Part shown: positions 5,316 through 45,802 of the stretch, in pieces
Layout: each line of letters begins with the position of its first letter
Position numbering within the stretch: position 1 is the stretch's first letter
From: a virus
Taxonomy: Duplodnaviria; Caudoviricetes
Direction: 5' to 3' (one strand)
DNA: 45,802 nt
Virus record (IMG/VR): IMGVR_UViG_3300030104_004308
Coordinates: 1-45,802 of that record
Notes under the pieces: generated by a model
The model's input: only the letters and a program-made list of their open reading frames with translations
What the model was told of the DNA's origin: nothing
Database searches by the model: none
Translations under genes and position numbers: made by a program

Positions 5316-5693
5316 TTACAGATCTATTAATCCCGTTTCTCTGTTTAAATATTTGTATTCTATTTTATGTATATCAAAATCTTTCATAATTTTACTACAA
5401 ATATCATTAGGACTAAAATCACCACAACTATAAACATCTAATTGCATTAACGCAGGTTTAGGTTCGTCCCAAATGTGCATAGCAATGTGAGAAGTTTCAA
5501 TTATTGCGATTGCGGTAATACCTCTATTACCAGGCATCGAGCAATACTTAACATAAGGACCCATAAATACTTTCATATTTATAGATTCTATAAATTCTCT
5601 CATCCAATGTTGTAATTGTTCTTCGTCTGTTGGTGGTTTGACTGCCTCCGCACGAATAATTAAATGTTTATGAACCAGGAGGCTGTTTTTCAT
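5316..5693 (-). CDS. speD: Pyruvoyl-dependent decarboxylase proenzyme, S-adenosylmethionine decarboxylase (SpeD)-like
   Basis: HKHLII N-terminus, GITAIAIIETSHIAMHIW self-cleavage region, LDVYSCG; start set at ATG 5693, just after the endolysin stop. Confidence 0.8.
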   Translation of the reverse strand: MKNSLLVHKHLIIRAEAVKPPTDEEQLQHWMREFIESINMKVFMGPYVKYCSMPGNRGITAIAIIETSHIAMHIWDEPKPALMQLDVYSCGDFSPNDICSKIMKDFDIHKIEYKYLNRETGLIDL

Positions 5694-5697
5694 GACG

Positions 5698-6150
5698 CTA
5701 TATCTCTTCGTATTGAGTTTTACCAGCATCATTACGAAAGGCACGCAAAGTTTGTTTTCGATTGCCTTCTTCGTTGTATGATACATGTAGCCATCCGCTA
5801 TTAGCGTCGCCGTCGTAAAATTCTAAAATTGCTTGATCAAATTCTAGGTTTTGAGTAATCCAATCAAAGAGTTCTCTATTGTCAACTCCATAACATTCAA
5901 AGTCTGCCGCCTGGCCTCTGCAGTGCTGGGATTTTCTACTACTGCCGATTTTTTCTGATAAAATTTCAGAGCGATATCCTGATGATACACTTACAACGCC
6001 CCACTCATCTCGTACAGGTTGCAAAACGTTTTCGCAAAGCAACTTCAAATTTTCTATGTGTTCATCTGTAGGTTGATTAGATATGCCATGACGCTGCGCT
6101 GTCTGCGAAGCAGTTAATTCTTTTAAAGAAAAGTTCTGACTTAATTTCAT
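5698..6150 (-). CDS. Peptidase M15A-family Zn peptidase, probable endolysin
   Basis: LSQNFSLKEL, SSGYRS, SQHCRGQAAD, WLHVSY zinc-ligand motifs; start at ATG 6150 (ATGA overlap). Confidence 0.85.
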   Translation of the reverse strand: MKLSQNFSLKELTASQTAQRHGISNQPTDEHIENLKLLCENVLQPVRDEWGVVSVSSGYRSEILSEKIGSSRKSQHCRGQAADFECYGVDNRELFDWITQNLEFDQAILEFYDGDANSGWLHVSYNEEGNRKQTLRAFRNDAGKTQYEEI

Positions 6151-6341
6151 GATATTAATTTTTCTAAAGCAAAGACCACTGCTGTTCCCGCAACAGTTAA
6201 AAGAACCCAATAGATTTTATCTATCTTACCGCCCAAATTTTCTACGTCTTTATGTACGTGTGATAAATTTTTTTTGACTCCTGATATATGTCCATACAGG
6301 GATAGGATATGTTCTCTTGTAGTCTTTGGTTTTATGTTCAT
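6147..6341 (-). CDS. Small coiled-coil plus single-TM protein, possible holin/lysis accessory
   Basis: 64 aa with C-terminal hydrophobic helix IYWVLLTVAGTAVVFAL; translationally coupled to the endolysin. Confidence 0.5.
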   Translation of the reverse strand: MNIKPKTTREHILSLYGHISGVKKNLSHVHKDVENLGGKIDKIYWVLLTVAGTAVVFALEKLIS

Positions 6342-9300
6342 TATGTTCTTTGGTTTAACCTAATTTGTTGCTCGGTAGGGGACAATAACGCACTTTCACT
6401 TCTTGTCAATAAAGTATTTGGATTGACCGCAGGTGCAGTGGCTGCAATTTTTGTAGGTTGAGGTTGAGGAGCAAGAGGTTGAACCTTTGGTTTTACAGGT
6501 TGAGCTGACACTGTTGCTTTAGGTTCATTTAAATTAATTTGTGGTAAGAATCCTCTTAAATCATTTTTAACAGGTCTATCATAGAAAAACTCCTCATCTA
6601 ATTTATCTCTTTTTAATTTTCTAATAACTCTGTTTAAACCTCGTTTAGGGTATACAAAGTTTTTATCTAATTCATAATCAAAACCTTGTTCTTTTTCTCT
6701 TTTCTTCAAGATATCTACTTTTTTCTCAAATAAAGATTTAGAGTAGTTAACAGGTGTAAATCTACCTCTCATTATGTCATTAATTTGTTTGGTACTTAAT
6801 CCAGTTCTCGCTTTAAAAACTTTTCTAATATCACGTTTAGACATACCCCATGCTTCAGCTGCCTTAATAGCACCATAAATTTCTTTTTGTAATCTAAATG
6901 CTTCTCTTTGAATATCAATAAACTCATTTACAATAACTGGTCCACCTCTGGTATAGATGTCATTAAACTTATAAAGTTTTTCTCCTTTAAATACATCAGT
7001 TCTAATTCTACTAAAATCTGATACTTTGTAATCTAAAGCTTCGGCAATAGACGCATTGAAAGGTTTTAATCCTGTAGACGCTCCTATTACAACGTCTCCT
7101 GTTTCTCTTAACACTCCTGACGGAGTTGGTTGTTTTATAATAGAGTCATAAAATTTTCTACTAGAAGTTATAATACCTGGTTCTAGTGTCATTAAAATAT
7201 GTTTCCAAGATTTATTCCACTTGTCTCCTAAAGAATCTGTAGGACTCCAAATAATTTTACCTGTATCTGTTCTACCTCTACCCACATCTATAAAAGGTTC
7301 AAATCCAATAGGAGTTGTTAAATAAGATTCAAAGAAGGTTCTTACAGGACCATTAGGACCAAAGGTAACTTCTAATGCATCTACATCACCTAAAGCTTTT
7401 CCTTCTCTTATTTTTGCAAACACAGCTTCAAGCGGTTCTATTACAACTGATTGCGGTATAAAATCAGATAAGTTTACAACTTTAAAGTTTCCTTTGTCCG
7501 GTTTACTTAATGCGAGTAAGTTAGAATTTTTCATATATTCTGGAGCAAAATATAGTTTGTATAAATTCATTAGTTCGTCATCTACACCAGTTATAGAGTT
7601 GTATAATCCTTTAGTTGCATAAGATATTCCACCTAAAGTTGTATATAAACCAAATAAACCTCTAATTCCCATTGCTCTTAATTCTGGATTTGTTGATGAT
7701 GCTTCTTTCATAGAGATAGCAAAGTTGTTAAAAGTAGTTCTTAACATTTCAGCAGGAAAAGATACGAAGTTACCAAATGGTGTTCTTCTTAAAGCTTGAA
7801 TAGCTATTGGAACTTTACTGTATGTTGGAATAGTGTTTCGTGTATACCATGAAGCTGCTTGTCTTATAGCTTCATCTATATCTACTTTTTGTCCTGATAA
7901 AGTTTTAGAAAGTAAATCTCTACCAGCTATTTCTTTAAACCATGTTCGTGCTTTATTAAGATCTCCCTTAAATAAATCTTTAGTAAATGATTTATACCAA
8001 TTGTAAGTGTACCACTTCCAAACGTTATCACCTCCAGCATATAGTCTTGCAGCTTTTTCTGTAAATGGATTCTTTTCTAAAAATTTAGCTAGTCCTTCAA
8101 CTGAAGCAATCTTACCATTTCTTACTTCTCTTAATACTGCTTGAAGTTCTGATGCCACAATGTTTTCATCTAATACACCATACTTAATTCCTTCGTTTAT
8201 ATTATCTAACAATCTTAATTCTGCCTGCGCGTTACCTTTTCCAGCTCTAAAAATATCATCCACTACCATTGCAATTGCTTCAGTAACAGATGCTCTACCT
8301 CCTATGACACCTCTTGCCATTGGAAACATTGCTGCAGAATAAAAGTTTCTAACCTGTGTTTCTGGAGATAATACGGTTTTACCATACTGTACTCCTGTTT
8401 TTAATTGTAATAAATTTTTATATACTCCACTTTGTAGCCAAGCATCTAGTGGTCCTTTAGTGCTTGTTAAAGCTTCAACAATATCACTAGCTCCATACAA
8501 AGGTTTTTTGACATCTTGTAATAAAGTTTTCATTTCTCCTAATCCTCTAGCACCAGATACAACCGCAGGATTTGTAATACCTGCTCTTTTAGCAGCTTCT
8601 TCTGATTTAAATAAAATTCTAGCTTTGGTTAATTCAGTTGCTAATCTATCAAACAACATTTTATTAGTTGTTTGAGTTACCATAGAAGAAGTTGTTGTAA
8701 GCACTGATGATTTTAAAGTGTTTTGCTGTCCTAATAAATTTTTAATAACTGTCGGTAATTCTTCGCCTGTAGCAATAAAGTTTTTAATTTTTAAAGACTC
8801 ACCTATTTTGTTTAAGTTTTGTATAGGATCAAACATATCTTGTTTTCCTAATCTTAATACTTCTTTGACCATAGATTCCGCTTGTAGTTCTCTTGCTCTG
8901 CCAACGGATACTCCAGGAGCACCAAAAACTTTTTTAGCTTCTACTCTAAATTGTCCACCCCCTTTTCCATTAATTAAATTAAGAGCATACTGTTTAGCTT
9001 TTTTAAATAATGGTGATGTTTCCGGTACGGCATAACCAGGATTTTCAAAGATAGCAAAAGACTTTCTCATGTAACCTTTTAAATTTTTTAATACTGCATC
9101 TTTTAAATCACCTGCTGGTAGCAACTCACCAAATGTTTTTTTAATTTCTAATAGATCTTTGTTTAAAGCTTGTGAAGTAACTCTTAAATCTTTAGGTAAA
9201 GAATTTAAAGTTCTTTGTCCTTTTAAATATTCTAATACTCCATCTAAATAATAGTCCATACTAGCTGGTGAAGTTTTTGCGGTATTATATTTTCCTTCAA

Positions 9301-10579
9301 ATGATTTAGCTAATTTGTAAGATCTTCTCTCTATACTCTCTAATAATTTTTCTGTTCTTCTTGCAGCTCTTTTAATTTCTTGTCTTGCTGCTGTGTTTAA
9401 AGAATATTGTGTACCTGTTTCTCTACCTAATGATCTTATGTAAGATAATTTATTATCTAAACCTTTTAACGCTGCCTCTAAAGGTTTAGCACTTGTTACC
9501 GAAAAAGTTCTCCAGTTTTTAAATGCTGGTAATGTAGCGGTCCATGTAGTTTTAAGAGGTGCACCAAAAGCCGGTAGTACGATCCGCGTTCCAAGATCAC
9601 CTACTACTTTTTTTCCAACTGTATTAGCTAATTGAAATGGTATTTGTATACCCGGAATCTTGCCAATTAATTTAGAAGCTCCTGACACAGGAGCGTTTAT
9701 AGCTTTAGCACCAATACCTAATACGTAAGTACCTGGCTTGTATAAACCATATCTAGCACCAACAGGTAAAGCTTTACCTGCTAAAGAAAAACCAAATCCT
9801 ACTGTAGCTCCTTCTGCACCAAATTTTATTTTATTTATAAATCTAGCCGCAGCTAAATCTCTTCCTGTTTTACCTTCCTCATTAACTCTTTCGTAAAGTA
9901 ATGCGGGTCTAGAAGACTCTGCTACTAACGCATCAGCTGCTCCTAAAGCTAATCCGGATTGACCACCACGTCTTGCTATACTTGTACCAAGTTTTGCAGA
10001 TCTTCTTAAAAATTTGTTTTTAATTTTACTTAAGCTAGCTCTAAATGCTCCGTAGCTTTTAGCTATATTACCTAGTTTAGGTATTTGATTAATTAATTTT
10101 AAAGTTAATGTACTTGGAACTCCATATTGAATACCAATTCTAGTAAGATCTCCTGTTAAAGTTTTAGGACTTCCATGATCAGCTATAAACTCTTCTGTAA
10201 CTTTATCTAATTCTTTCGTGTAATTAGTATCAAAAGCATAATCGACAGGAATAGTAAGAAGTTCAGATAAACCTTTTATAATTCTTCCTGTTCCACCAAC
10301 AACTGCTGCTTGAAATTCTCTTCCAGCTGTAGTTTCATTAGGACCTAGATCTTGTTCAAAGATAGTTTCTTCACCTTTTTCTTTTTGTCTTTTGTTATAA
10401 ATATCTAAAGCAAGACCAATTCCTAAATTCATTGGACTTGATCTTAAATTATCTATAGCGTCACCCGGAACGACTTTTACTTTTCGTTCGTTAGACCTTC
10501 TTTCTAATACGTTATTTTTGGTATTTTGGTTTTGAATTATTTCTTTAACCAATTGCGGTGACAAAGACCTATCAGCCAT
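6341..10579 (-). CDS. Large putative internal virion/DNA ejection protein
   Basis: 1412 aa; last of four coupled genes after the tail genes, the position of podoviral ejection proteins; PFGNFVSFPAEMLR motif. Confidence 0.6.
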   Translation of the reverse strand: MADRSLSPQLVKEIIQNQNTKNNVLERRSNERKVKVVPGDAIDNLRSSPMNLGIGLALDIYNKRQKEKGEETIFEQDLGPNETTAGREFQAAVVGGTGRIIKGLSELLTIPVDYAFDTNYTKELDKVTEEFIADHGSPKTLTGDLTRIGIQYGVPSTLTLKLINQIPKLGNIAKSYGAFRASLSKIKNKFLRRSAKLGTSIARRGGQSGLALGAADALVAESSRPALLYERVNEEGKTGRDLAAARFINKIKFGAEGATVGFGFSLAGKALPVGARYGLYKPGTYVLGIGAKAINAPVSGASKLIGKIPGIQIPFQLANTVGKKVVGDLGTRIVLPAFGAPLKTTWTATLPAFKNWRTFSVTSAKPLEAALKGLDNKLSYIRSLGRETGTQYSLNTAARQEIKRAARRTEKLLESIERRSYKLAKSFEGKYNTAKTSPASMDYYLDGVLEYLKGQRTLNSLPKDLRVTSQALNKDLLEIKKTFGELLPAGDLKDAVLKNLKGYMRKSFAIFENPGYAVPETSPLFKKAKQYALNLINGKGGGQFRVEAKKVFGAPGVSVGRARELQAESMVKEVLRLGKQDMFDPIQNLNKIGESLKIKNFIATGEELPTVIKNLLGQQNTLKSSVLTTTSSMVTQTTNKMLFDRLATELTKARILFKSEEAAKRAGITNPAVVSGARGLGEMKTLLQDVKKPLYGASDIVEALTSTKGPLDAWLQSGVYKNLLQLKTGVQYGKTVLSPETQVRNFYSAAMFPMARGVIGGRASVTEAIAMVVDDIFRAGKGNAQAELRLLDNINEGIKYGVLDENIVASELQAVLREVRNGKIASVEGLAKFLEKNPFTEKAARLYAGGDNVWKWYTYNWYKSFTKDLFKGDLNKARTWFKEIAGRDLLSKTLSGQKVDIDEAIRQAASWYTRNTIPTYSKVPIAIQALRRTPFGNFVSFPAEMLRTTFNNFAISMKEASSTNPELRAMGIRGLFGLYTTLGGISYATKGLYNSITGVDDELMNLYKLYFAPEYMKNSNLLALSKPDKGNFKVVNLSDFIPQSVVIEPLEAVFAKIREGKALGDVDALEVTFGPNGPVRTFFESYLTTPIGFEPFIDVGRGRTDTGKIIWSPTDSLGDKWNKSWKHILMTLEPGIITSSRKFYDSIIKQPTPSGVLRETGDVVIGASTGLKPFNASIAEALDYKVSDFSRIRTDVFKGEKLYKFNDIYTRGGPVIVNEFIDIQREAFRLQKEIYGAIKAAEAWGMSKRDIRKVFKARTGLSTKQINDIMRGRFTPVNYSKSLFEKKVDILKKREKEQGFDYELDKNFVYPKRGLNRVIRKLKRDKLDEEFFYDRPVKNDLRGFLPQINLNEPKATVSAQPVKPKVQPLAPQPQPTKIAATAPAVNPNTLLTRSESALLSPTEQQIRLNQRT

Positions 10580-10580
10580 T

Positions 10581-11603
10581 TTATGCCTCCTGTGGTAATA
10601 CTAATTCAACTCCGTATTTACTATTAAAATTATCTACATCTGATTGCGTAGCAATTTCAGCAAAGTCTGCTAGCGCTTCATAGCTTGTAGCTAAAAGATT
10701 TACGATGTCATCAGTTATTTCTTTTGGTAATCTAGCTCTTAATTCATCATAACTTATTTGTGTAGGTTGAGGATTTGTTACTGTCTCTGTTTCTTGCACG
10801 TTAACATCTGTTATTCCAGCTGGTGTGGCTGTCATTAAATTCATATCTTCTGTAACTGATCCACCTTCAGCTAATCCTGCATCAAAATCACCTACTAATC
10901 TTAATAAGTATTCTACAACTGCTTCGTTAATTTCTTCTAAAGTTGCATCATCACCTAAACTATCTTGAACTGTTTCAGTAACTGCTACAATTGTTTGAGG
11001 ATTTAAAATTCTAAATTTAGAAGCTTTGTTACCACCTCTAGCTATATCTAATTTAACTTCATCTCTTTTAGCATTAAGTGTTGCTATTTCTGTTTCATCT
11101 TTTGCAGCAGCAATTTTTTTGTCATAAAATTTATCGACTACATCTAATTGAACTTCTGTAGCTGTTTTCTTATCAGCTTTAGCCATTCCTACTTTGTAAT
11201 CTAAACCTGCACCTGTAAGAGAGGTTGCAAGATCTTGTCTTGATTGTCCTCTTGTATCCATAGAACTCGCTATGTCTGTTCCTAATTTTGCTAAAGGTTT
11301 AGATGCTGTAGCCAATGCTCCTGAAATTCCACCACCTTCTGATGGTCTTCCTAATAAATCTAAACCAGCACTAGCTACTCTTAAATAATCACTTGTACTT
11401 AATCCTCTTCGTTCTGGAATACCTCTTAAAATTTCTTCTCTCATACTTAATACTTCTTCACCAATTCCTGAATAACCACCTGGACCATCTACCAATCCTC
11501 TTTTATTTGGCATACCACCATTAGCCAAACCAGAAGCGATCCCCGTTCCGTAGCTTGATGCTCGGCCTCCTCTAAACATTGGTCTTCTTAAAATTCTACT
11601 CAT
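10581..11603 (-). CDS. Putative internal virion protein
   Basis: 340 aa; MSRILRRPMFRGG N-terminus; LANGG and LAEGG motifs; acidic C-terminal domain. Confidence 0.5.
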   Translation of the reverse strand: MSRILRRPMFRGGRASSYGTGIASGLANGGMPNKRGLVDGPGGYSGIGEEVLSMREEILRGIPERRGLSTSDYLRVASAGLDLLGRPSEGGGISGALATASKPLAKLGTDIASSMDTRGQSRQDLATSLTGAGLDYKVGMAKADKKTATEVQLDVVDKFYDKKIAAAKDETEIATLNAKRDEVKLDIARGGNKASKFRILNPQTIVAVTETVQDSLGDDATLEEINEAVVEYLLRLVGDFDAGLAEGGSVTEDMNLMTATPAGITDVNVQETETVTNPQPTQISYDELRARLPKEITDDIVNLLATSYEALADFAEIATQSDVDNFNSKYGVELVLPQEA

Positions 11604-12352
11604 TATCTTGACCCAAACATTCCTCTGGCTGCTCCCAGTAATCCAGTTGCACCAATACCTAATCCTAATAACTGTTGAGTTGTGCTAGGAGGAGGTGTTG
11701 ATTGAACTTGTGTTGCTGCAGGGAAACCACCAATTACTGATGCAAGCTGCGGACCAATTAATCCTAGTCTTGTGTAATCAGCAAATGCTGTTTCTCTAGC
11801 TGCTTCTTGATCTGCTGCTAATTGAGCTTGACCAAGTTGTCTTTGTTGTCCACCGATTTGGCTTTGATACTGACCCAAACCTTGTTGCTGTTGTAATTGT
11901 GAACCTGCTTGTTGTTGTGCTTGTTGAAATCCTTGTTGTCTTAATTGTGATTCTAATAATGCTCTTTGTGTTGCAGCGTCAGCTTGAAATACTCCTTCAG
12001 CTGCAGCCATTCTACTACCACCAAAAGCTCCTGCTCCTGCTGCTTGTTGTCTTAATGCATTTAATCCACTCGCTTGCTCTCTTTGTAAAGCTGCAAGCGA
12101 AGCATCAATTACTTCTTGTTGGTAAGGACTTTGAAATTGTTGATAAGCTTGTGGTCCTACTAAAGAATCTAAACCTGCTGCGGCTGTTGCTGCTTGTTGT
12201 TCTAAAGCTGATTGACCTTCTACAAATTGTCTACCTGTATAAGTTGATGTAGGTAACGCTGTACCTAATAATTTTAAACCTTCGTTAGTTACGCCTAGAC
12301 CGGCTGCTTCTACAAAGGGTTCTCTATACTGCCTAGTTTCTGTTATTGCCAT
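11603..12352 (-). CDS. Gln/Ala/Gly-rich DNA transfer (ejection/pilot-like) protein
   Basis: 249 aa; SPYQQEVID, GAGAFGGSR, Q-rich coiled coil, hydrophobic Gly-rich C-terminus. Confidence 0.6.
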   Translation of the reverse strand: MAITETRQYREPFVEAAGLGVTNEGLKLLGTALPTSTYTGRQFVEGQSALEQQAATAAAGLDSLVGPQAYQQFQSPYQQEVIDASLAALQREQASGLNALRQQAAGAGAFGGSRMAAAEGVFQADAATQRALLESQLRQQGFQQAQQQAGSQLQQQQGLGQYQSQIGGQQRQLGQAQLAADQEAARETAFADYTRLGLIGPQLASVIGGFPAATQVQSTPPPSTTQQLLGLGIGATGLLGAARGMFGSR

Positions 12353-14277
12353 TATACTTTTGCCTCCAAGTTATGCATTAAATCATACATACGTTTTGCG
12401 CCTTGGTTAACACTTCCGCCACCTGCAGCTCTAACTGCATCGGCTGTCATTACAAATTCGTTCTTGCTTAATCTTGCAGGAACATCATCTGCTTTTTCTT
12501 TTGTTCCTTCAGGAATAAATCCTCCACCTCTCATATCCTTATCCATGCCAGTATTCAATAAATTTCTGTTCATTAAACCACCGGCTTCCATTCTTCTAGC
12601 ATGATGTGCTATGCCACCCATAGCTGCATCCATCATATCAGGTTTGTTAGGTAATACTTGAGGCATTTTTTCTTCAAATAGTCTGTCTTCGTCAAATTCA
12701 GGAAACGATCGTGGTCCTGGCTCTTCATCGCCTGTATCTTCGGGCTCACCTTTTTTTCTTCTTTTTACTTTACCACCCTCTTTAAATGGATCATGACCAA
12801 TCGCATTATAATATGCATCACTATCATAAGCAATGTCTCCTGCTGCTTCATAGCTATAACCTAAAGACATTAAATGTTCTAAACGGTCTTGATACCATTG
12901 AGGTCCCGCTGTTTGACCTTTAATTTCTTCCATTTGATCTCTTGGTGTTGAATCCATTGAACCACCTTTAGCCATACCTGATCTAGCTTGTGCTAAAAAT
13001 TCTGAAAAAGACATAGGAACTAATCCTTGTTCTTCCATTTCAAAAACATATTGCTCATACATTTCTTCTATGTCTGTTTTATATCCTGATGCCATTTGCA
13101 TAATACCTTCATTAGGTTTTTGACTCATTCTATCAAAAGCGTCTCTAGCTGCTTTAGCTGCATCTGCTGGAGATAAACCCATATCTAAAAACTCTTCGTA
13201 AAGTTGTTCTAAAACTCTTTCATTATTTATATCTGATGCTTGTTCACCATATTGTATACCTTGGTCTTTCATAAAATCCATAATATTTAAATCATCTGTT
13301 TCTTCTTCTATTTCTATTTCACCCCCTCTAGCAAAACCCATTCTCATAGGTGTAGGATCAGTAAAGAAAGATTTTCCATAAGCTTTTTCTATTCCACCTA
13401 AAGCTTGACTCATTAATCCAGCATAATCTGGATCTGCTGGTCTTGTATAATAAACTTTTTCTTCTTCTTCCAGATCTTCAGGTTCCTCGTCTTTGCCGTT
13501 ACTTCGAATTAAAGGTTTAGCTTCTTTTCTTGAATATCTATTGTTTTTTTCCATAGATTTCATAAAACCTTTTAGACCTTTGGGAGCTTTTGTTCTTTTT
13601 TTAAATTTTTCTATTAATTCTATAAGTCCACCTTTTTCGTATCCATATCTATCTAACATTGAATTTATCTCATCTGGTTCGTAAGCTCCTGTATTTATAT
13701 AAATATTATAAATAGCACTTCTTCTATCTGCTTTACTTTTCATACCTTGTGATAATAAACTTTGATTGTATTTATCTATTTCTGCTTGATTAAGTTCTGC
13801 AAATCTAGCAGCTGAATCTATTGCTGTTTGTGCACCAATTGTTTTTAATGCACCCGCTCCTTTAATTCCTTCAGATGCTCTTGATAATACACCTGCTGTT
13901 TTTGCAGCTGCTCTTGCTCCTGCTGTGTCTCCTATTGCAACAAAACTATCTGAATCAGCTATAAGGTTAGGATCTAGTCTTCCTGCTACATTTCCTAAAC
14001 CTTCAGCTAAAAGATCTGGTGCACCAGCTAATGCTGCTGTTCTTAAAATGTTTGCATCTTCATCAGTGGCTGCTGCTGTAGCTCCTGCAATTAAACCTTT
14101 TGAAATAGCATTTCTTAAACCTGCGTTTCCAATACCACTTAAAAAAGTGTTGGAGCCAGCCATTTGTGGACCACCATAAAACGCTGCTATATAAGGTAAT
14201 GCTGGCCTAATTTCTTTAGGTATAATTTTTTTGGCTATCTTACGAACTGGTCTGAATACTTTTTTTAAAAATCCCAT
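12352..14277 (-). CDS. Putative internal virion protein with multiple xxGG-delimited modules
   Basis: 641 aa; amphipathic basic N-terminus, Ala/Gly-rich region, seven GG motifs, C-terminal DDVPARLSKNEFVMTADAVR domain. Confidence 0.6.
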   Translation of the reverse strand: MGFLKKVFRPVRKIAKKIIPKEIRPALPYIAAFYGGPQMAGSNTFLSGIGNAGLRNAISKGLIAGATAAATDEDANILRTAALAGAPDLLAEGLGNVAGRLDPNLIADSDSFVAIGDTAGARAAAKTAGVLSRASEGIKGAGALKTIGAQTAIDSAARFAELNQAEIDKYNQSLLSQGMKSKADRRSAIYNIYINTGAYEPDEINSMLDRYGYEKGGLIELIEKFKKRTKAPKGLKGFMKSMEKNNRYSRKEAKPLIRSNGKDEEPEDLEEEEKVYYTRPADPDYAGLMSQALGGIEKAYGKSFFTDPTPMRMGFARGGEIEIEEETDDLNIMDFMKDQGIQYGEQASDINNERVLEQLYEEFLDMGLSPADAAKAARDAFDRMSQKPNEGIMQMASGYKTDIEEMYEQYVFEMEEQGLVPMSFSEFLAQARSGMAKGGSMDSTPRDQMEEIKGQTAGPQWYQDRLEHLMSLGYSYEAAGDIAYDSDAYYNAIGHDPFKEGGKVKRRKKGEPEDTGDEEPGPRSFPEFDEDRLFEEKMPQVLPNKPDMMDAAMGGIAHHARRMEAGGLMNRNLLNTGMDKDMRGGGFIPEGTKEKADDVPARLSKNEFVMTADAVRAAGGGSVNQGAKRMYDLMHNLEAKV

Positions 14278-18360: not shown

Positions 18361-19395
18361 CTACCTCGCCGTGGCTACATCGCCATTTGTCGAAACGATG
18401 GGTTGACCGAAGGCCATATATGTATATGAATTACCTGATGTATTTACATCATCATTAGTATCTATAATTTTAAATCCATTAGCATATATATTCATGTAAT
18501 CATTAGTAAATTCTGCATCAGTAGCGTTGGCTAATAATTGTTGGTTGTCAGGATTGTAACCAATTCTTTTATCATCCATTATAATCCAACCTTTACCAGA
18601 CTGTTCTCTTTTTATCATAACCCAAGCTGGTTTAAAGCCACAATAAACATAAGGACCATCAGCATTTCCATTTCCAATATATTGTCTGCCAATTTTACTA
18701 AATCCTTTTTTTTCTGCAAAACAATAAGCAATCATAGCACTTGCAGAATTTACTGGTCCAGTAGTTCCAATACTAAATACATTTGCATCTGGTGCTGTGC
18801 TTTGCCAATAAGTTGAACCACTTTGTGAACCAGAAGTTTCATTTAAGAAAAAATAAGATCCCCATCCAATACTATCAGTACCAACAGCCCACTCTTGTGC
18901 TGATGCTAAAGGTTTAGTTATAACTAATCTTGGTGCAACTCCAAGTCCATGACCTACTGTTGCATTTGAACCTGTGCCTGTGTAACTTACTATTGAAAAT
19001 CCACTTGTTGTATCAACAGAAACTGTTGAGCTAATTGTACCATTTCCATTGGCTGAACCTGAACCATTAGCTTTAAAATTCCAAGATACCATAGTCTGTC
19101 CTGATTGATTCACTTTATAATCAGAAGCATCAGAACCAAGAGTAAATCCATCAGTGTCAAATGCAGTTAAAGTATCTGCATCTGTTTGTTCTGTATCAGT
19201 AGAATTAGTTTGTATAAGTTTTGTTGCTCCTCTTACTGCATCACAAAGTCTATGTGCACCAGTGCCATCTCTACGTTTTAGCCAAACTAAATCAGGTTGA
19301 AACCCGACGCCTGTAATAGCATTAGTTGCACCTGTACCTGTATAAAGTATAGGGTTCATATAAGATGTTGATTTTGAAATTGTTGAATAAGCCAT
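18361..19395 (-). CDS. Cassette 3 gene C: beta-rich tail/receptor-binding partner protein
   Basis: LYTGTG...ITGVGFQPDLVWLK, GHGLGVAP, GFKPAWVMIK, YMAF; paralog of 21615-22661 and 25064-26134. Confidence 0.7.
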   Translation of the reverse strand: MAYSTISKSTSYMNPILYTGTGATNAITGVGFQPDLVWLKRRDGTGAHRLCDAVRGATKLIQTNSTDTEQTDADTLTAFDTDGFTLGSDASDYKVNQSGQTMVSWNFKANGSGSANGNGTISSTVSVDTTSGFSIVSYTGTGSNATVGHGLGVAPRLVITKPLASAQEWAVGTDSIGWGSYFFLNETSGSQSGSTYWQSTAPDANVFSIGTTGPVNSASAMIAYCFAEKKGFSKIGRQYIGNGNADGPYVYCGFKPAWVMIKREQSGKGWIIMDDKRIGYNPDNQQLLANATDAEFTNDYMNIYANGFKIIDTNDDVNTSGNSYTYMAFGQPIVSTNGDVATAR

Positions 19396-20705
19396 TATAC
19401 GTTTAATCCTTTTGTTGTTAGGGGTTGATATCCAGTAGGTACATCGTATTCAAATGTTCCCGGTGTTGAAGCTGATGTGCCTGCTGATGTTACTGCCGTA
19501 GTTGCAAAGTAACCATTTCCAAAATTACAATTCCACACAGTACCAGCATAACTTGATAAAGCAAAGGTATAAGTTGTATTTGCTGTTAAACTTAAAGCTC
19601 CTGTTCCGCTAGCACCGCTTGTAGGATCACCACTTTCTTGCCAAGTACCATTTTTACTAAAATAAATTTTAGAGTTGTCTAAATCCATAGCTACACCAAT
19701 AATATCATTATTCACATAACTAGTTCCGTAAGATGCACCACCATTAGATGCCGTGCCATTATTTTGATAACCTTGTCCTGTACTGTCTTGACCAATGTAC
19801 CATGAACTTGAAGAATTTTGTTTTTGATTATCTATATCTACTGCACCTATAATGCAATTACTTCCACTTGATATTAATTTAGCTTCAAAATAATATTTTC
19901 CACTTGAATCACCTAGTGTAGGTAATATAGTTTTCCAAGCACTTCCACTACCTCCGTTTGCAGTTGTGGCCCCATTTGTGTTAGCTTGCCACTGATTTGC
20001 AAAATGATATGTTTGATTAGTTAAAACACCAAAGTTGTTAGATGGACAATCTAAAGTTGGTGTACCACTTCCTGACATTGTAAGATCATTTGTATTACCT
20101 GATGTATCATCTCCTAAAGCAGATGTATCTTCAAAAGTAAGTTTAAAACCAGTACTACCGTAAGTTACTGAAGGATCGGCATTTGGCTTCCACTCGCCCG
20201 ACGTAGAATCTGTAGATCCAAAAGTAGAGGCCGCGTATTGAGTACCATCTATATATATAACTTGAGACATTAAACCATCAAAATAATTATCACTATTGCC
20301 ACTTTGACCAACGTAACAAGTTGTTCTAGTAACAAAATCTGTATTTATTGCTCCATAATCTACAGATGAAAAAGAAGTAATTTGTTCTCCATTAACATAC
20401 ATTTTAATTCTATCAGTAGATACTGCTTGAGTTGAATCTACTGCAATTACAACATGGTACCAACTTGAATTATCTTTATAAAGAGCTGTTGTTTTTGTAT
20501 CTGCTTCTGTACTTCCATCATATGCTTGCTTTATACATAATTTACCACTTTCAAAAAACATTCTAACATATCTTACAGAGCTTTCTGCAAATGATAAGAA
20601 AGCACCATTAAATGCAGATGATGCTGGTTTTAACCAAGCCGAAAGTGTAAAAATGTTTTGATTTGCTGCGTTGTCTGCTGCTTTTGTTAAATATGTTGAA
20701 GCCAT
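19395..20705 (-). CDS. Cassette 3 gene B: concanavalin A/LamG-like plus SPRY-like domain protein
   Basis: FTLSAWLK, WYHVVIA, KMYVNG (LamG); GKYYFE, IIGVAMDLDNSKIYFSKNG, NFGNG (SPRY). Confidence 0.75.
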   Translation of the reverse strand: MASTYLTKAADNAANQNIFTLSAWLKPASSAFNGAFLSFAESSVRYVRMFFESGKLCIKQAYDGSTEADTKTTALYKDNSSWYHVVIAVDSTQAVSTDRIKMYVNGEQITSFSSVDYGAINTDFVTRTTCYVGQSGNSDNYFDGLMSQVIYIDGTQYAASTFGSTDSTSGEWKPNADPSVTYGSTGFKLTFEDTSALGDDTSGNTNDLTMSGSGTPTLDCPSNNFGVLTNQTYHFANQWQANTNGATTANGGSGSAWKTILPTLGDSSGKYYFEAKLISSGSNCIIGAVDIDNQKQNSSSSWYIGQDSTGQGYQNNGTASNGGASYGTSYVNNDIIGVAMDLDNSKIYFSKNGTWQESGDPTSGASGTGALSLTANTTYTFALSSYAGTVWNCNFGNGYFATTAVTSAGTSASTPGTFEYDVPTGYQPLTTKGLNV

Positions 20706-20714
20706 AGTATATTC

Positions 20715-21611: not shown

Positions 21612-21614
21612 AAT

Positions 21615-25060: not shown

Positions 25061-25063
25061 ATA

Positions 25064-26134: not shown

Positions 26135-26143
26135 AGTTTCTCC

Positions 26144-27484: not shown

Positions 27485-27493
27485 AATTTTATC

Positions 27494-37470: not shown

Positions 37471-37473
37471 AAT

Positions 37474-37791
37474 TTATTTTTTAGCAGTTTTAGCTGATCT
37501 TTTTAAAGCTTTGTCTGTAACAGAACCTTTTCCTGGTTTACTTTTACCAAGTCTTTTAGCTCTGTTCATATAATAGTATAAACCTTTTCTAACTCTACGT
37601 CCATCTTTAGTAGTGTGATAATTACTTGAACCACCTTTTTTAAAGACACCTCTGCCTTTTAAAACGTCAGCTCTAGTTACTTTACCATCACCTGTTAAAT
37701 CAGGAAATGATTTTCTTTGTTTAGCTTTTCCGCCATCTTTCATGAGGGCTCTACCAGATCCTCTCATTTGTATTCCATATTTTCCAGCCAT
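37474..37791 (-). CDS. Small basic protein with an EF-hand-like DLTGDGKVTRAD segment
   Basis: 105 aa, K/R-rich; MKDGG and FKKGG flank FPDLTGDGKVTRADVL. Confidence 0.65.
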   Translation of the reverse strand: MAGKYGIQMRGSGRALMKDGGKAKQRKSFPDLTGDGKVTRADVLKGRGVFKKGGSSNYHTTKDGRRVRKGLYYYMNRAKRLGKSKPGKGSVTDKALKRSAKTAKK

Positions 37792-37886
37792 TATTTTTTT
37801 CCTTTTCTTTTTAACTTGAGCTTTCTCTTATACTCTTGAGTTTTTTTTAAACCTAATGTGGGTTTAACTTTTTTAATTGCTCTCAT
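37791..37886 (-). CDS. Tiny basic protein, 31 aa (absent from ORF track)
   Basis: MRAIKKVKPTLGLKKTQEYKRKLKLKRKGKK; TAATG overlaps at both ends. Confidence 0.7.
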   Translation of the reverse strand: MRAIKKVKPTLGLKKTQEYKRKLKLKRKGKK

Positions 37887-38068
37887 TATTTTCTCCGCAT
37901 TTTTTTAAATGTTTGAGCAAGTCTTGCACGTTGGCCTAACTTACCACCAGCTTTAGCAGCTCTTGCTAAAGTTTTTGCAGGAATCTTTTTACCTTTTTTG
38001 ATTCCTAGAGATTTTCTTAAAGCACCTGGTTTCTTAACTGCTTTTTGAATCCATTTTTTGTCAGCCAT
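37886..38068 (-). CDS. Small basic protein
   Basis: 60 aa; WIQKAVKKPGALRKSLG...RARLAQT. Confidence 0.7.
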   Translation of the reverse strand: MADKKWIQKAVKKPGALRKSLGIKKGKKIPAKTLARAAKAGGKLGQRARLAQTFKKMRRK

Positions 38069-38301
38069 TATCTTTTAGCGACTCCGCCACCTCTAGTAGC
38101 TTTGCCCATAGATTTAACGTGACCGCCTTTTTTCATAGCTTGTCCCATTCCTCTTTTAGCTAATCCACCGCCTCTTTTTAGCTCTCTAACTATTCTTTTC
38201 TTTTCATCCTTAAGATTTCTTTTGCCTTTTCTAGTTCTTGCTTTTTCAGCATCTACTCGGCCAAGTTCCTCAAGTCTGTTCATACGTCTTGTGTTTGCCA
38301 T
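38068..38301 (-). CDS. Small basic protein
   Basis: 77 aa; NRLEELGRVDAE then LKRGG, MKKGG, ATRGG. Confidence 0.65.
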   Translation of the reverse strand: MANTRRMNRLEELGRVDAEKARTRKGKRNLKDEKKRIVRELKRGGGLAKRGMGQAMKKGGHVKSMGKATRGGGVAKR

Positions 38302-38558
38302 TATTTTTTCCTTCTTCCTTTGTCCATAGTTCTTACACTTGCGTAAGCTCTACGTCCCATTGCTTTTTCCATACCTTTAGATTCATCTCTTCTAGCTTTA
38401 AAGCTTTGAGATTTTTTACCTCTTCGGGCACCTAAAGATTCATCAAGTCTATCGTTGTAGCCTTGTCTTTTTCTTTTCTTTACGCTACCACCTTTTTTCT
38501 TTCCTTGTCCGTAAGGGAATCTTGGTGGAGAGTATCTTGTTCCAAAGTCGTTTCTCAT
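38301..38558 (-). CDS. Small basic protein
   Basis: 85 aa; KKKGG, QGYNDRLDESLG, RRDESKGMEK. Confidence 0.65.
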   Translation of the reverse strand: MRNDFGTRYSPPRFPYGQGKKKGGSVKKRKRQGYNDRLDESLGARRGKKSQSFKARRDESKGMEKAMGRRAYASVRTMDKGRRKK

Positions 38559-38944
38559 TTTTTTGCTCCGTTCCTAAATATTTGTGTCCCCTTTATACCA
38601 AATATACTCGCCACGACAAGGATCCACAAGTTTGTAAACCATGACGGTAATGTTGAGAAGTATTCGAAGAATAACTTCACCTTCTCCATTGCTGTAGGGT
38701 CGTCCGATAGAACTGCCCACATCAATACTATAATCGGAGCCGACAGAATAATCAATACAAATTCGTCTTTCCAGTCCGATTGTCTCGCTTCAAGAAGTTT
38801 GCCCTGATAAGCTTCTTCGCCTCGGGCCATCTTTTCTGCGTGCATTAACTGTGCATCCGACATCGCCATTTTAGTTTTCTGACGATTAGAATAAATTTTA
38901 CTTCCAGCTTGCAAAGCAATTTTTGCTAAACTAAACCAAGCCAT
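38555..38944 (-). CDS. Membrane protein, putative holin
   Basis: 129 aa; SDWKDEF followed by two hydrophobic helices; LPSWF...SIFGIK. Confidence 0.55.
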   Translation of the reverse strand: MAWFSLAKIALQAGSKIYSNRQKTKMAMSDAQLMHAEKMARGEEAYQGKLLEARQSDWKDEFVLIILSAPIIVLMWAVLSDDPTAMEKVKLFFEYFSTLPSWFTNLWILVVASIFGIKGTQIFRNGAKK

Positions 38945-38945
38945 A

Positions 38946-39146
38946 TTAGTACCAAGTAGCTTTAACTGGTTTCTTATCGGCTCTCATAGCTTTCGTTCCC
39001 TTAACAGTCACTGTTTGTGATGTTAATGGATCAGTAGCTTCGATAGTTTTACCACCTGTTTGGTAACCATCTTTGCCAACACCTAATTCTTTTGTAATTT
39101 TAGGTGCTTTTACGTAAGCTTGTCCTCTTGTCCAATCTTTACCCAT
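38946..39146 (-). CDS. Hypothetical small protein
   Basis: 66 aa with SD AAGGAG; YQTGG motif. Confidence 0.6.
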   Translation of the reverse strand: MGKDWTRGQAYVKAPKITKELGVGKDGYQTGGKTIEATDPLTSQTVTVKGTKAMRADKKPVKATWY

Positions 39147-41664: not shown

Positions 41665-43614
41665 TTATATTACACCTTTAAGTGAATTTATACCGTACAT
41701 ATTAGGGTATGTAAAGCCTGAACGTCTTGATCTTTCTAAAGCTCTTTTTTGCTCTTCAGCTTCTCTTTGTTTTCTAACCCTTTCTTTTACAGCTTCAATA
41801 TCAACAGCTTCTATGCCTTCTCGTGTTGGTGTATAAAAATCTGTATCTAACATCGACTCATCACCTGCTATTTGTTGTTCCGATACAGCTTGTCTTTCAA
41901 GATCGCTCATTTTTAAAAGATCTTGTGCTTCTGCAACTCGACCTGACAATAAAAAAGGTGATGCTAAAATTTCAGCTGTTGTTTTACCTTGTTTTCTCAT
42001 GTTAATCATATTGGCTACTTCAAGAGGTATTGCTGCTATACCTAAAGCTTTGCCTCCAATCTTTGCAATATTTTTAATAGCGCTTGCTGTTTTACCTAAT
42101 CTTCCTGAACCAAGTTGAGTGCTTGAAGCATCAATAGTTAAATCACCTGCAAAAGGATTAGATAATCCAGGAAATAATTCTTTAAACATCGCGGGATCCA
42201 GAGGAATTCCTCCGTAAAATCTTGTGCCTGTTGTTGAAGCTTGCTTTAAAGCTTTTAATACTTCAGGGGGCATTCTTTTGCCTTGAGATTTATATAGATC
42301 TTTTATTTTAGTAATTGTATCAACATCTTTACCATAAATTTTTTTTCCAGGAGCCGTAAGCACGTTAGGATCAGATTTTCTAACAAAGGTTTCGAATACT
42401 TTTCTTTTTTCACCAAATGTCTTTGCTTTTTTTATATCTGGTATTACAGCTTCTCTCGGTCTAAACTCGTTAAAATTTTTATCATAAGCTAAAAGTTGAG
42501 TTACAAAAGGATTTCTCTTTATTCCAAAAGGATGATGAACTTGCATAGAAGTATGAAAAGGATTTCCCGCATTATAATTAGGAATTAAAGTTTTATTTAA
42601 GTGTTGATTTAAATTAACATTTTTTCCTTTGTAGTCAAAAAAAGTTTCGTTTAATAAAAATTTTTCTTTAAAAGGAGTTAATACTTTTTCATAAGCACCT
42701 TTACCAATATTTTTATTTATATAGTTTTGTAAATTATTATAACCAAAAGTTTTTCCAGTTTGAGTATCATAAAATTTAACGTTTTTAACATTTGCCCCTT
42801 TAAATTTTTTAGGGACTGTTTTTTTTACTAATTGTAATCTTGAAGGTCCTTTTCCTTGAGTGCTAGTGTACAAGCTTTTCCAAAATCTATCTTTAGCATT
42901 ATTGCCTGAAGCCCACACTCCATATTTATTTTCAAAAGCTTCTCTTGCTGCTTTATTACGCAATCTTCTTGTTTTTCTAGCTTTAGGTGTTCGTTCATAT
43001 TCTCTTTTCTTTGCTAAATATTCTTTACTTCTATAAAAACCAGCGTCAGCTTTTTTCTTTCTGGCTGCAGCTTGAGTGGCTTTGTAACGTAGATCTTCTA
43101 AACTTAATTTTCCTTGATTATATAATTTAACAGATTTCTTTCCTTCTTTAGTTCTATTTAAAACTTTTTTTATTTCTCCCACTTTTCTAGGGACCATAGC
43201 TTTGGGTAGTTGTTTAGAAATTCCTGCAGATTCATTATATAAACCAACTGCTTGTCTATTTAATTTTCCGCCATATTCAGTAACATACTTATCTTTAATA
43301 ACTTCTCTTATAAATTCGCTATCAGTTAAATTTTTATTTTTAAGTCTTAAAGTTTTAAATTCTTCTACTGATAAACCTATTTTGCCTTTTGGTATTTTTA
43401 ATTTTTTATAAGCTTCTGCCGCTTGCTTTTCGGTTTTATACAAACCAACAGTCTTTCCATTTTTAACAACTTCATAAGGTTTAGCTCTATTACGTGAAGG
43501 TCGATATCTTACTCCTGGTGGGTATTTTCCATATAGCTCTGTTCCTTTCTCTACAAGGCCACCAACTTTATAACCCGGTCTTATTCTTTCAAGTATAGAT
43601 GTAAATTCTGACAT
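41665..43614 (-). CDS. Large basic orphan protein with AP2-like and HNH-like segments
   Basis: 649 aa; YKVGG near N-terminus; GVRY...NGKTVGLYKTEKQAAEAY; QVHHPFG...NPF...N. Confidence 0.5.
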   Translation of the reverse strand: MSEFTSILERIRPGYKVGGLVEKGTELYGKYPPGVRYRPSRNRAKPYEVVKNGKTVGLYKTEKQAAEAYKKLKIPKGKIGLSVEEFKTLRLKNKNLTDSEFIREVIKDKYVTEYGGKLNRQAVGLYNESAGISKQLPKAMVPRKVGEIKKVLNRTKEGKKSVKLYNQGKLSLEDLRYKATQAAARKKKADAGFYRSKEYLAKKREYERTPKARKTRRLRNKAAREAFENKYGVWASGNNAKDRFWKSLYTSTQGKGPSRLQLVKKTVPKKFKGANVKNVKFYDTQTGKTFGYNNLQNYINKNIGKGAYEKVLTPFKEKFLLNETFFDYKGKNVNLNQHLNKTLIPNYNAGNPFHTSMQVHHPFGIKRNPFVTQLLAYDKNFNEFRPREAVIPDIKKAKTFGEKRKVFETFVRKSDPNVLTAPGKKIYGKDVDTITKIKDLYKSQGKRMPPEVLKALKQASTTGTRFYGGIPLDPAMFKELFPGLSNPFAGDLTIDASSTQLGSGRLGKTASAIKNIAKIGGKALGIAAIPLEVANMINMRKQGKTTAEILASPFLLSGRVAEAQDLLKMSDLERQAVSEQQIAGDESMLDTDFYTPTREGIEAVDIEAVKERVRKQREAEEQKRALERSRRSGFTYPNMYGINSLKGVI

Positions 43615-44732
43615 TATGAATAATCACTAAATGTTGATGGGTCATTGACTGATGAACCAAATGTTCCTTGAGTTGTTTCACCAGGTCCACCACTCATAGA
43701 CTCTGCATCTCTTATCTGTCTTAATGCATTTAATCTATCAAACTCACGTTGTGCTGCATCTTGTTCTTCTTGTATTCTTTTATTTCTTTGATCTTCCATA
43801 AAGTCATCAAATCTATTTTTAGCAGCAACACCTTTATCTCTTACAAATTTAAAAGCATTTAAAGCTGGAGACATTGATAACAATGTTTGAAGAATGCCTT
43901 TGTCTTCATTAGCTGCTTCATATTCATAATCAAAAACATCTTTACTTAATCCTGTTGGATTAATTCCATAAGCTTCTGTTTCATAATCAAAATTTTTATT
44001 TCTATTTACATTAGTTATACCTGATCCACCATCACCTTCTTGTCCTGGTATAATAATTGGTTTTATAACAGGAGGAACAACAGGAGCAGCTGCTACTCTT
44101 GTAGGTTGTACTTGATTTTGTAAAAGAGAACTAACGGTTTGAGGTTGAGTTGTTCCCACACCAAACAAATCTTCGTATTGTTGTTGAGTATATCTATCTT
44201 GTAAAGTTGGGTTAGATAGATAAGTACCTATCACGTTTGATATTCCTCCACCTGTATTAAAATTAACTCTGCCACCATAAGCTTTTTTAGTTGGATCATC
44301 TTTGTTTCTTTTTTTAAAATTTCTAATAGCTTCTCTGTTTTGTCTTGTTAATTTTTTATATAATTCTCTTGTAGATTCTTGCATAACTAATTTAGGATCA
44401 ACAGCTTCTTTTACTTTTGTAGTTTTAGGAGCTTGTCCTATCTTAACATCTTTACCTTTACCTTGTTTCATTAGCATATTCATAATGCCTTCAGGTGACA
44501 TCTTTGATGTCTTACCTTTTACAGTTACAGGTATAGTACCTTCTGGTTTTGTAGGTCTGGGTTTGAAAGGATTTGTAATTCTATCTTTTGGAAATTGAAT
44601 AACTTTTTTAGAATCAATAACTTTCTGTCTTGCTTTTTGTTGTAGCTTTAAAAGATCAAGTCCTTTAGGCAAAACTCCTCGAGCTGCCTTGTATGCTTTG
44701 ATCATTAAATTTAAAACTTGTAAATAACCCAT
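43614..44732 (-). CDS. Orphan protein, basic N-half and acidic C-half joined by tandem GG motifs
   Basis: 372 aa; KAYGGRVNFNTGG; TAATG coupling on both sides. Confidence 0.55.
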   Translation of the reverse strand: MGYLQVLNLMIKAYKAARGVLPKGLDLLKLQQKARQKVIDSKKVIQFPKDRITNPFKPRPTKPEGTIPVTVKGKTSKMSPEGIMNMLMKQGKGKDVKIGQAPKTTKVKEAVDPKLVMQESTRELYKKLTRQNREAIRNFKKRNKDDPTKKAYGGRVNFNTGGGISNVIGTYLSNPTLQDRYTQQQYEDLFGVGTTQPQTVSSLLQNQVQPTRVAAAPVVPPVIKPIIIPGQEGDGGSGITNVNRNKNFDYETEAYGINPTGLSKDVFDYEYEAANEDKGILQTLLSMSPALNAFKFVRDKGVAAKNRFDDFMEDQRNKRIQEEQDAAQREFDRLNALRQIRDAESMSGGPGETTQGTFGSSVNDPSTFSDYS

Positions 44733-45802
44733 TAATAATATTCCCGTTGTACCCGAGGCCTAGATTGATCTTTTTCATCTTCAGGGTGTGTAATAAATCC
44801 TCCCTGTCTAAATCTCATAACTGCTTGTGTTGTACTGTCGACCAAATCGTCGTTATCTCCATACGGAAATGCAGCACACTCTTCTACCACTTCTTCAGCA
44901 AATTTTGTATCAGGCGCCCAAATCATCCCTGCCTCAAAAATCGGGGATACGGCGTTTACTCTAGCATGTTTGTCGTTTCCTTTACTAGGTGTGTAATTTA
45001 TAACAGGAATACCCATCTTACGCAATTCATAAGTTAAGGGTAATCCAGATGCTTTACTTTCCACGATCACCGTTTCGGGATTCCAATATCGATACTGTTC
45101 AAGGGCTGCTTTACGCAGTTCGGGGAACTCTAATCGTTCTTTTAAGGCATCAAGTAAGATTAAGTGAGGTTGACTATCAGGATCTGGAATAAATACACCC
45201 CACGTCGTAATAGCAGAAAAGTCAGCAGTTTCTTTTTTTAAAAAGGCCGTATCATAAGATTGTATGACATGTTGTAATGGCGGTATATAATCCTTATCCC
45301 AAACTTTCCACCACTCACGTTTGATCAGCGATCCTTCTTCCGCTGTTGGATTCTGCATCCATTGTGCGTTCCATTTAGGAACAGATAAAGATGCTTTTAC
45401 AGATTCTAATTCTTCTAGTTTCCAGTAACCAGGCCAAACAGGATTACCTGATGGTAGTATTGCAGGAAACTCAATAACTTCCCACTGATCTGATTTTAAT
45501 TCTTTTTGTGATTTCATTAATGCACCGGTTAGATCTTTCATAGACCATCTTGTCATTACCACCACAATCGCTCCGCCTGGTTGTAGACGTTGTCTTGGAC
45601 CAGAAGTATACCAGTCATAAGCACGTTCTAATGCAGTCATATTAAGTGCATCTTGTTCAGAGTGTGGGTCATCGATAATAAGTAAGTCCGCACCACGGCC
45701 CGTGATTGCCGATCCAACACCGGCTGCGTAGTATTCACCGCCTTGTTCGGTTTCCCATTTACCTGCTGCTTGCGAATCTTCTTTGAGTCTAGTTCTAAAT
45801 AT
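44732..45802 (-). CDS. terL: Terminase large subunit (5' end outside window)
   Basis: Frame open to the window edge: AGVGSAITGRGADLLIIDDP (Walker B), MTRW, QSYDTA, VESKASG, DDLVDSTTQA nuclease motifs. Confidence 0.95.
   Translation of the reverse strand: MFRTRLKEDSQAAGKWETEQGGEYYAAGVGSAITGRGADLLIIDDPHSEQDALNMTALERAYDWYTSGPRQRLQPGGAIVVVMTRWSMKDLTGALMKSQKELKSDQWEVIEFPAILPSGNPVWPGYWKLEELESVKASLSVPKWNAQWMQNPTAEEGSLIKREWWKVWDKDYIPPLQHVIQSYDTAFLKKETADFSAITTWGVFIPDPDSQPHLILLDALKERLEFPELRKAALEQYRYWNPETVIVESKASGLPLTYELRKMGIPVINYTPSKGNDKHARVNAVSPIFEAGMIWAPDTKFAEEVVEECAAFPYGDNDDLVDSTTQAVMRFRQGGFITHPEDEKDQSRPRVQREYY

Follow-up and report, generated by a model that had tools for sequence, protein, structure and literature searches.

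A repeated Gly-Gly motif on a probable ejection protein of a pelagiphage as a candidate site of maturation cleavage

The DNA considered here, 45,802 nucleotides of a tailed virus of the Caudoviricetes (IMG/VR virus record IMGVR_UViG_3300030104_004308, positions 1 to 45,802; hereafter the window), is, to judge from its genes, most of an HTVC023P/HTVC027P-type pelagiphage, and our subject is a short motif centered on Gly-Gly that recurs in one of its proteins, of 641 amino acids (aa), and in several of its other genes. Phages of the HTVC023P type are podoviruses (bioRxiv 10.1101/2019.12.14.876532), and the genomes of the cultured relatives are longer than the window (57.6 and 59.8 kb), so that some genes may be missing from it. 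The open reading frame (ORF) of the 641-aa protein matches HTVC027P gp82 and the ortholog of 023Pt_psg01 (tblastn; Table 1). The genes follow one another in the order terminase, two variable genes, portal, small basic genes, GroES, scaffold-like genes and capsid, then adaptors, fibres, a 682-aa structural gene, three small genes and the 641-aa gene, and finally a 249-aa gene, a 340-aa gene and the gene of a 1412-aa virion protein. The 641-aa gene itself lies between a phrog_3287 structural gene and the 249-aa gene, which has a weak match to the 'DNA ejection protein' family phrog_4287. Because of this ejection-gene neighbourhood behind the tail genes, and because the group is podoviral, its product is probably an internal, ejected virion protein (an ejection or cargo protein) and not a tail ruler; it has no Pfam match, only about 40 aa of it match tape-measure families of PHROGs, and the phage is short-tailed.

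An earlier sequence-only reading of this DNA had pointed out seven GG strings in the protein, followed by a compact terminal sequence, and all of these are found on the 641-aa ORF: YEKGG (13641-13627), FARGG (13335-13321), MAKGG (12975-12961), FKEGG (12786-12772), AAMGG (12627-12613), MEAGG (12591-12577) and DMRGG (12537-12523), each on the minus strand. The motif is real, but the informative unit is not xxGG as proposed; it is [FYMLKR]-[AK]-x-G-G-x-[VI], in which an aromatic residue, Met/Leu or a basic residue is followed by Ala or Lys, any residue, Gly-Gly, any residue and Val or Ile. DMRGG is likewise present, but its true register lies one residue downstream (M582-R-G-G585-G586-F-I), and AAMGG is the weakest site, outside the six that score at least 9. 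The pattern [FYLM]xxGGx[VIAM], picked after inspection of the data, occurs six times in the 641-aa protein against a shuffle mean of 0.33, a count reached by none of 5000 shuffles, and 201 times across 70 orthologs (shuffle mean 24.8, maximum 39). The looser [FYLM]xxGG is also found six times in the protein (1.3 expected, P=0.0014), and plain GG 12 times (6.9 expected, P=0.03).

Between two and nine motifs are carried by each of 107 orthologs (299-810 aa), the first at a median position of about aa 206. The N-terminal part is shared by 77 of these orthologs, the inner blocks by 8-66 and the terminal module by all 107, which were selected on it. In the 641-aa protein the N-terminal part (aa 1-213) has no strong transmembrane segment (maximum KD19 0.92) and matches only unnamed viral clusters, and the blocks between the motifs are unlike in net charge (-19, -7, -4 and +3). 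That blocks would be gained and lost at the motifs, as the sequence-only reading expected, was borne out by an indel analysis: of 86 indels of at least 25 aa, 45 come within 5 aa of a motif at either end, a placement expected by chance for 2.9%. The count is from alignments of the first 500 of the 504 pairs that qualified, after removal of 4 of 90 events that lay in the first 150 aa or lacked a motif. Since repeats attract alignment gaps, the analysis was rerun with the motifs masked and the 182 events clustered to 43; 23 of the 43 lie within 8 aa of a motif (5.7% expected), and in 28 of them the block is exactly as long as a motif spacing, where 12.6 such cases would be expected.

The terminal module (59 aa) is the most conserved part of the protein, with D597, A601, E607, V609 and V615 invariant in 94 sequences. 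It is the GG...D..PA.LS..EFV module of tape-measure proteins, below called the GEFV module, and its D, A, E and V remain invariant in 111 sequences that include tape measures. The earlier suggestion that such a module is common to tape measures, lambda gpH among them, proved right: gpH matches at E 8e-9 a tape-measure profile that also matches the module of the window at 6e-9, and the module is shared by the tape measures of JBD30 and Douge. The module profile matches 40,702 protein clusters at 50% identity (E <=0.001); 13 of the 16 best-scoring matches scanned with Pfam proved to be tape measures, and lysozyme-like, NlpC/P60 or M23 domains occur in some of these. In the best matches the module is present in 2-11 copies. 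With a relative's module as query, 895 phage records are matched, and tape measures make up nearly all of the 60 that were listed. In tape-measure loci a motif stands upstream of the module in 75/80 cases and on both sides in 65/80. Giant tape measures (P0122-P0271) of up to 7,872 aa contain up to 11 copies of the module and many lone motifs between enzyme domains. In HMO-2011 gp49 (L095, 11935-14223), a 762-aa gene that follows shortly after the portal gene, the module is N-terminal, and its position in protein and genome therefore varies between podovirus groups.

Pfam has no family for the 641-aa protein or its terminal module, even at E 10, and sequence searches of the Protein Data Bank (PDB) return only the Douge, JBD30 and lambda tape measures, with chance-level rows for a cutinase and KIF13B. 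The AlphaFold2 model of aa 548-641 (94 sequences) reaches a pTM of 0.40, with helices at pLDDT >90 and the conserved D-to-E stretch at 59-70 without a sheet; a model of a motif-bracketed tape-measure unit (72 sequences) has the same pTM and motifs at about 50. Both models are weak, and neither a fold nor a docking of the motif can therefore be demonstrated from them. With the weak model of the terminal region Foldseek gave no match in the PDB at E <=0.001 and only uncharacterised phage proteins in BFVD. A half-Hint (intein-like) resemblance had no support in any search. In the full-text literature, subscription papers lying outside its coverage, neither motif nor module was found described as a family. 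Note also that 26 of 197 module-bearing proteins (including L097 12859-15138, L099-L109 and L152-L161) have a second conserved module, AxGG...D-T-M-L-A-H-I-x-P-x-E...T-G-L-x-E-[FY], directly before a basic amphipathic stretch that resembles the N-terminus of the 641-aa protein. Its D-A-E spacing is that of the terminal module, and hhalign between the two is not significant. This second module, which the 641-aa protein lacks, looks like a removable leader.

The motif is restricted to a conserved set of genes of the head and ejection modules. With a matrix trained on the orthologs, 14 sites are found in 8 of 57 ORFs against 1.1 expected; six of them lie in the 641-aa gene, whose orthologs trained the matrix, and eight in seven other genes, and the matching gene set bears the motif in both cultured relatives. 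An independent matrix, trained on 337 tape-measure sites, places the top 16 of the 116 GG sites of the window in nine ejection, cargo or terminase genes, namely those of the 641-, 340- and 1412-aa proteins, three of the small basic genes, both variable genes that separate terminase and portal, and the tail of the terminase; capsid, scaffold, portal, fibre and replication genes have none of these top 16 sites. The positions of the two variable genes carry the motif in both cultured relatives as well. One of these genes, that of 649 aa (41665-43614), has its motif at the N-terminus, matches AP2 weakly (E 0.007, below the cut-off) and contains a His-His stretch; in the relatives its place is taken by unrelated sequences. 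It is a candidate for variable cargo, and its His-His stretch may be nuclease-like. Behind the portal lie five tiny, very Lys/Arg-rich ORFs (37189-38558), three of them with a scoring motif, which are likely DNA-condensing internal proteins.

This distribution bears on two explanations that involve no cutting. The motifs might be decayed copies of the first strand of the module, spread by duplication and microhomology recombination and serving as flexible joints that nothing reads; the module does start with a motif, in tape measures it also ends with one, and recombination alone is expected to give indels at repeats. However, unrelated genes (those of the terminase, the basic proteins and the 340-aa protein) retain the motif at orthologous sites in the window and both relatives, and it heads non-homologous modules (see below), so that selection by a common reader is needed and neutral joints appear improbable. 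It is less probable still that the motif mimics the mobile loop of GroES and recruits host GroEL to fold or hold the proteins. The GroES gene of the phage does contain K-S-K-G-G-L-I (score 7.5, 17th of the 116 sites), but a GroES loop needs consecutive hydrophobic residues after GG, whereas the first residue after the GG of the motif varies (Y/H/S/K/P), and the cut in T5 would be left unexplained. This co-chaperonin gene (36332-36820) is of a kind already described for the phage group (bioRxiv 10.1101/2019.12.14.876532).

The T5 cut is that of the tape-measure protein pb2, which is reported to be cleaved after R1127 to pb2* and pb2C (PMC10038345). The sequence at this point, P-R/A-E-G-G-M-M (the slash marking the bond), is a [RFK]-A-x-G-G-x-hydrophobic motif and ranks first of 41 GG sites in the T5 structural region with the tape-measure matrix. 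The intact mass reported for the C-terminal fragment is 9,702 (PMC11937500), and the mass computed for pb2C is 9,701.7 for the R1127/AEGG bond and 9,387.4 for a cut after GG. R-A-x-G-G is invariant in seven T5-like tape measures, and it stands at the head of 114 of 120 modules of the VGExGPE family, which includes pb2C (hhalign 98%; profile from 115 sequences). Because the mapped cut of pb2 holds the first rank, any cut is likely to fall before A-x-G-G and not after GG, and because it sits on the same motif, the earlier proposal that the 641-aa protein is processed at its motifs is plausible. The manner of cutting first envisaged, after Gly-Gly as by adenovirus, ASFV and C39 enzymes, is not supported. 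An adenain- or C39-like protease would suit the GG that is the invariant core of the motif, and the small basic motif-bearing proteins resemble adenovirus core proteins. Yet the T5 mass fits the bond before AEGG and not the later one, the sole mapped site lying three residues earlier, and no Cys-His protease of the adenain/pS273R/C39 kind was recognised among 45 ORFs of the window (Pfam, PHROGs; the genome may be incomplete), all of which makes cleavage after Gly-Gly very unlikely.

Lambda gpH is processed to gpH* and gpH-C, a fragment of about 14 kDa, the site and the catalyst being stated as unknown (PMC12617516). Its module is bracketed by FATGG and YATGG, which are the top two of 72 GG sites in the first 20 kb of lambda. 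The site at 1066 given in the JBD30 paper is a peptide-cutter prediction and not a measurement, and the accessible parts of papers on mycobacteriophages, Xanthomonas phages, Sf11 and phiTE contain no mapped tape-measure cut.

A further comparison is offered by the crAss001 cargo protein gp45, to which the 641-aa protein has an Atlas similarity of 0.86 with 122 shared features, a lead only. Density of gp45 has been described for portal-bound residues 425-552 and tail-bound residues 214-245 (PMC10172136). The first residue of the former is precisely that of A425-F-G-G, and its end is 7 aa short of A560-Y-G-G; the latter lies between motif-like sites at A207 and A261, and five of the top nine of 73 GG sites, by the tape-measure matrix, are in gp45. 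The same paper models an uncut gp45 chain threaded through the portal and does not discuss cleavage (PMC10172136).

That the motif-headed domain of gp45 binds the portal wing (PMC10172136) would also suit a motif that is a binding tag, a short beta-hairpin that docks on the module or the portal to load cargo or to dock the tail of the terminase, the proteins staying whole. Such a tag would fit the occurrence of the motif at the C-terminus of the terminase and in small basic proteins, the absence of a classical active site from the terminal module, and tandem motifs 8-9 aa apart, which if cut would give tiny useless peptides and yet would serve avidity. We regard it as possible but rather unlikely: the only top-scoring site of T5 is a mapped cut, the C-termini of tape measures are at the tail tip, far from the portal, and binding and cutting are not exclusive. 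The capsid-targeting sequence of T4 reportedly does both.

We therefore favour, with a probability of roughly one half, the reading that aromatic/hydrophobic, Lys or Arg-[AK]-x-G-G-x-[VI] is a maturation cut site on a likely injected protein, the C-terminal two-thirds of which consists of exchangeable blocks strung together by this motif, and is cleaved just before [AK]-x-G-G, which may possibly double as a loading tag. The 641-aa protein would be loaded into the prohead together with the other motif-bearing proteins and, during head maturation, be cut into an N-terminal piece of about 22 kDa, several pieces of 1-14 kDa and the 6-kDa terminal module. Cutting would let these pieces pack in the head and leave it separately through the short tail.

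Several observations weigh against cleavage as proposed here. A virion proteome of HTVC023P/027P-type phages was not found in the literature accessible, and no cleavage has been observed in the phage or its relatives. The T5 cut is disputed, since an older study places it at V1148 +/-1 and trypsin, too, would cut at R1127 (PMC11937520). The GEFV module gave an hhalign probability of <3% in every comparison with pb2C or the VGExGPE family, and the only link to it is a chain through phrog_10574 at E 0.27; with no homology detected behind the motifs, the T5 link comes down to a motif of seven residues. In lambda, the bond F733/A734 would give about 12.5 kDa and GG pairs at 709-721 would give 13.8-14.6 kDa, so that the fragment size does not discriminate. 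The density of gp45 runs through two more GG sites (434 and 447), and hence not every look-alike site is cut; moreover, the scores of its sites 424 and 559 reach no more than about 6 with the tape-measure matrix, and homology of its domain to the terminal module was not detected by BLAST or hhalign with a single-sequence target. The indel events are not phylogenetically independent, and the repeated motifs could by microhomology be enough to yield them. The terminal module has no conserved His or Cys in the 94 or the 111 sequences, and in many podovirus homologs the motif that belongs to the module is degenerate. Finally, the motif is borne by the large terminase, which is not a virion protein.

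As for the enzyme, the 45 ORFs searched with Pfam and PHROGs include no recognised protease other than an M15 endolysin; the earlier remark that no conventional prohead protease is recognisable thus stands, for a window shorter than the genomes of its relatives. Matches of the capsid to protease-named PHROGs were rejected, since they cover only the capsid part of fused profiles. In the scheme favoured here, the motif would be read by the terminal module, which, having no confident fold on its own, would probably act as an oligomer, with Asp597, Glu607 and Ser604 as the only candidate catalytic residues. This is the weakest step of the proposal, and even if cleavage takes place the module itself is less likely than not to be the catalyst; the enzyme might instead be a protease of the host or the product of a phage gene that lies beyond the window. 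A more speculative and, as a whole, doubtful extension is that the GEFV module both reads the motif and, as a minimal, oligomeric Asp/Glu protease of a kind not yet described, cuts before A-x-G-G and is the missing catalyst of gpH processing, so that one maturation code would serve tens of thousands of ejected proteins of siphoviruses and podoviruses, making both giant tape measures and podovirus cargo polyproteins. If so, the head and tail pieces of crAss gp45 would be separate peptides and not one threaded chain.

Table 1. Features of the window discussed in the text (a slash marks the candidate bond)
Feature	Position	Strand	Basis or remark
641-aa probable internal-virion protein, HTVC027P gp82 ortholog	12352..14277	-	ORF, tblastn, gene order
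N-terminal part, aa 1-213: basic amphipathic start, Ala/Gly-rich body	13639..14277	-	77/107 orthologs, median 51% identity
Motif 1, Y213/EKGGLI	13621..13641	-	motif scan
Motif 2, F315/ARGGEI; frequent indel boundary	13315..13335	-	motif scan, both matrices
Motif 3, M435/AKGGSM; frequent indel boundary	12955..12975	-	motif scan
Motif 4, F498/KEGGKV	12766..12786	-	motif scan, both matrices
Weak motif 5, A551/AMGGIA; below matrix threshold; bounds 116-aa indel	12607..12627	-	
Motif 6, M563/EAGGLM	12571..12591	-	motif scan
Motif 7, M582/RGGGFI; heads terminal module; G586 nearly invariant	12514..12534	-	
Variable inter-motif blocks, aa 214-563	12589..13638	-	each in 8-66/107 orthologs
Terminal module, aa 583-641, common to tape-measure proteins	12355..12531	-	107/107 orthologs, selected on it
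249-aa neighbour, no motif	11603..12352	-	weak PHROG 'DNA ejection protein' match (phrog_4287, E 1.7e-6)
340-aa neighbour, motifs L26 and L244	10581..11603	-	orthologs in HTVC027P and 023Pt_psg01 carry motif too
1412-aa large virion structural protein; one moderate motif, Y1209	6341..10579	-	phrog_22602
Small Lys/Arg-rich genes after portal	37474..39146	-	four with motif: 37474-37791, 38068-38301, 38301-38558, 38946-39146
Two variable genes between terminase and portal; motifs Y15 (649 aa), K150/F158 (two sites, 372 aa)	41665..44732	-	
Motif F277/RQGGFI, 25 aa from large terminase C-terminus	44792..44812	-	also in 2/2 relatives' terminases

Elsewhere in the window are a gene for AdoMet decarboxylase (5316-5786) and a tail-fibre cassette in triplicate (18361-28276), with three DUF7483 genes, three SPRY/laminin-G genes and three similar spacer genes, one with an Ig-like match.

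The site and enzyme of the lambda tape-measure cut have been open for fifty years and were still stated to be unknown in 2025 (PMC12617516). The motif predicts cuts at F733/A734 and Y778/A779 of lambda gpH, at F1019/A1020 of JBD30, before A207, A261, A425 and A560 of crAss001 gp45, and at Y177/A and F238/N of HTVC027P gp82. The rulers of long-tailed phages are tied to the cargo of short-tailed ones by a module that has no name yet and occurs in about 40,000 protein clusters, and the motif marks unannotated genes whose products are probably packaged and injected in one of the most abundant phage groups of the ocean.

Among known systems, T5 pb2 resembles the 641-aa protein in having the motif, R/A-E-G-G-M-M, directly before a small conserved module of an ejected protein. 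It is a siphovirus ruler with one site, whereas about seven sites are found here in a podovirus protein and others in eight further genes; its VGExGPE module is not detectably homologous to the GEFV module, and a cut has been mapped in T5 alone. Lambda gpH shares the homologous GEFV module, but the 641-aa protein is no ruler and ends at the module. The crAss001 cargo protein C1 (gp45; Pfam crAss_CARG1) has repeated x-A-x-G-G joints as well as the gene position of the 641-aa gene, after the tail-end gene; it differs in that homology between the domains was not detected and in that its chain has been modelled as uncut. In the prohead-protease systems of SPN3US (gp245), T4 (gp21) and phiKZ, too, a single short motif recurs across many proteins of the head interior and of ejection. 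In these three systems the cut is made after Glu by a dedicated protease, and scaffold and capsid proteins are among those cut, unlike here, where capsid, scaffold and portal are without the motif and a dedicated protease was not recognised among the 45 ORFs searched. The contributions of the window are the podovirus-wide gene set that includes the tail of the terminase, the masked indel control, the non-homologous modules behind a shared motif and the match of motif sites to the fragment boundaries of the crAss protein.

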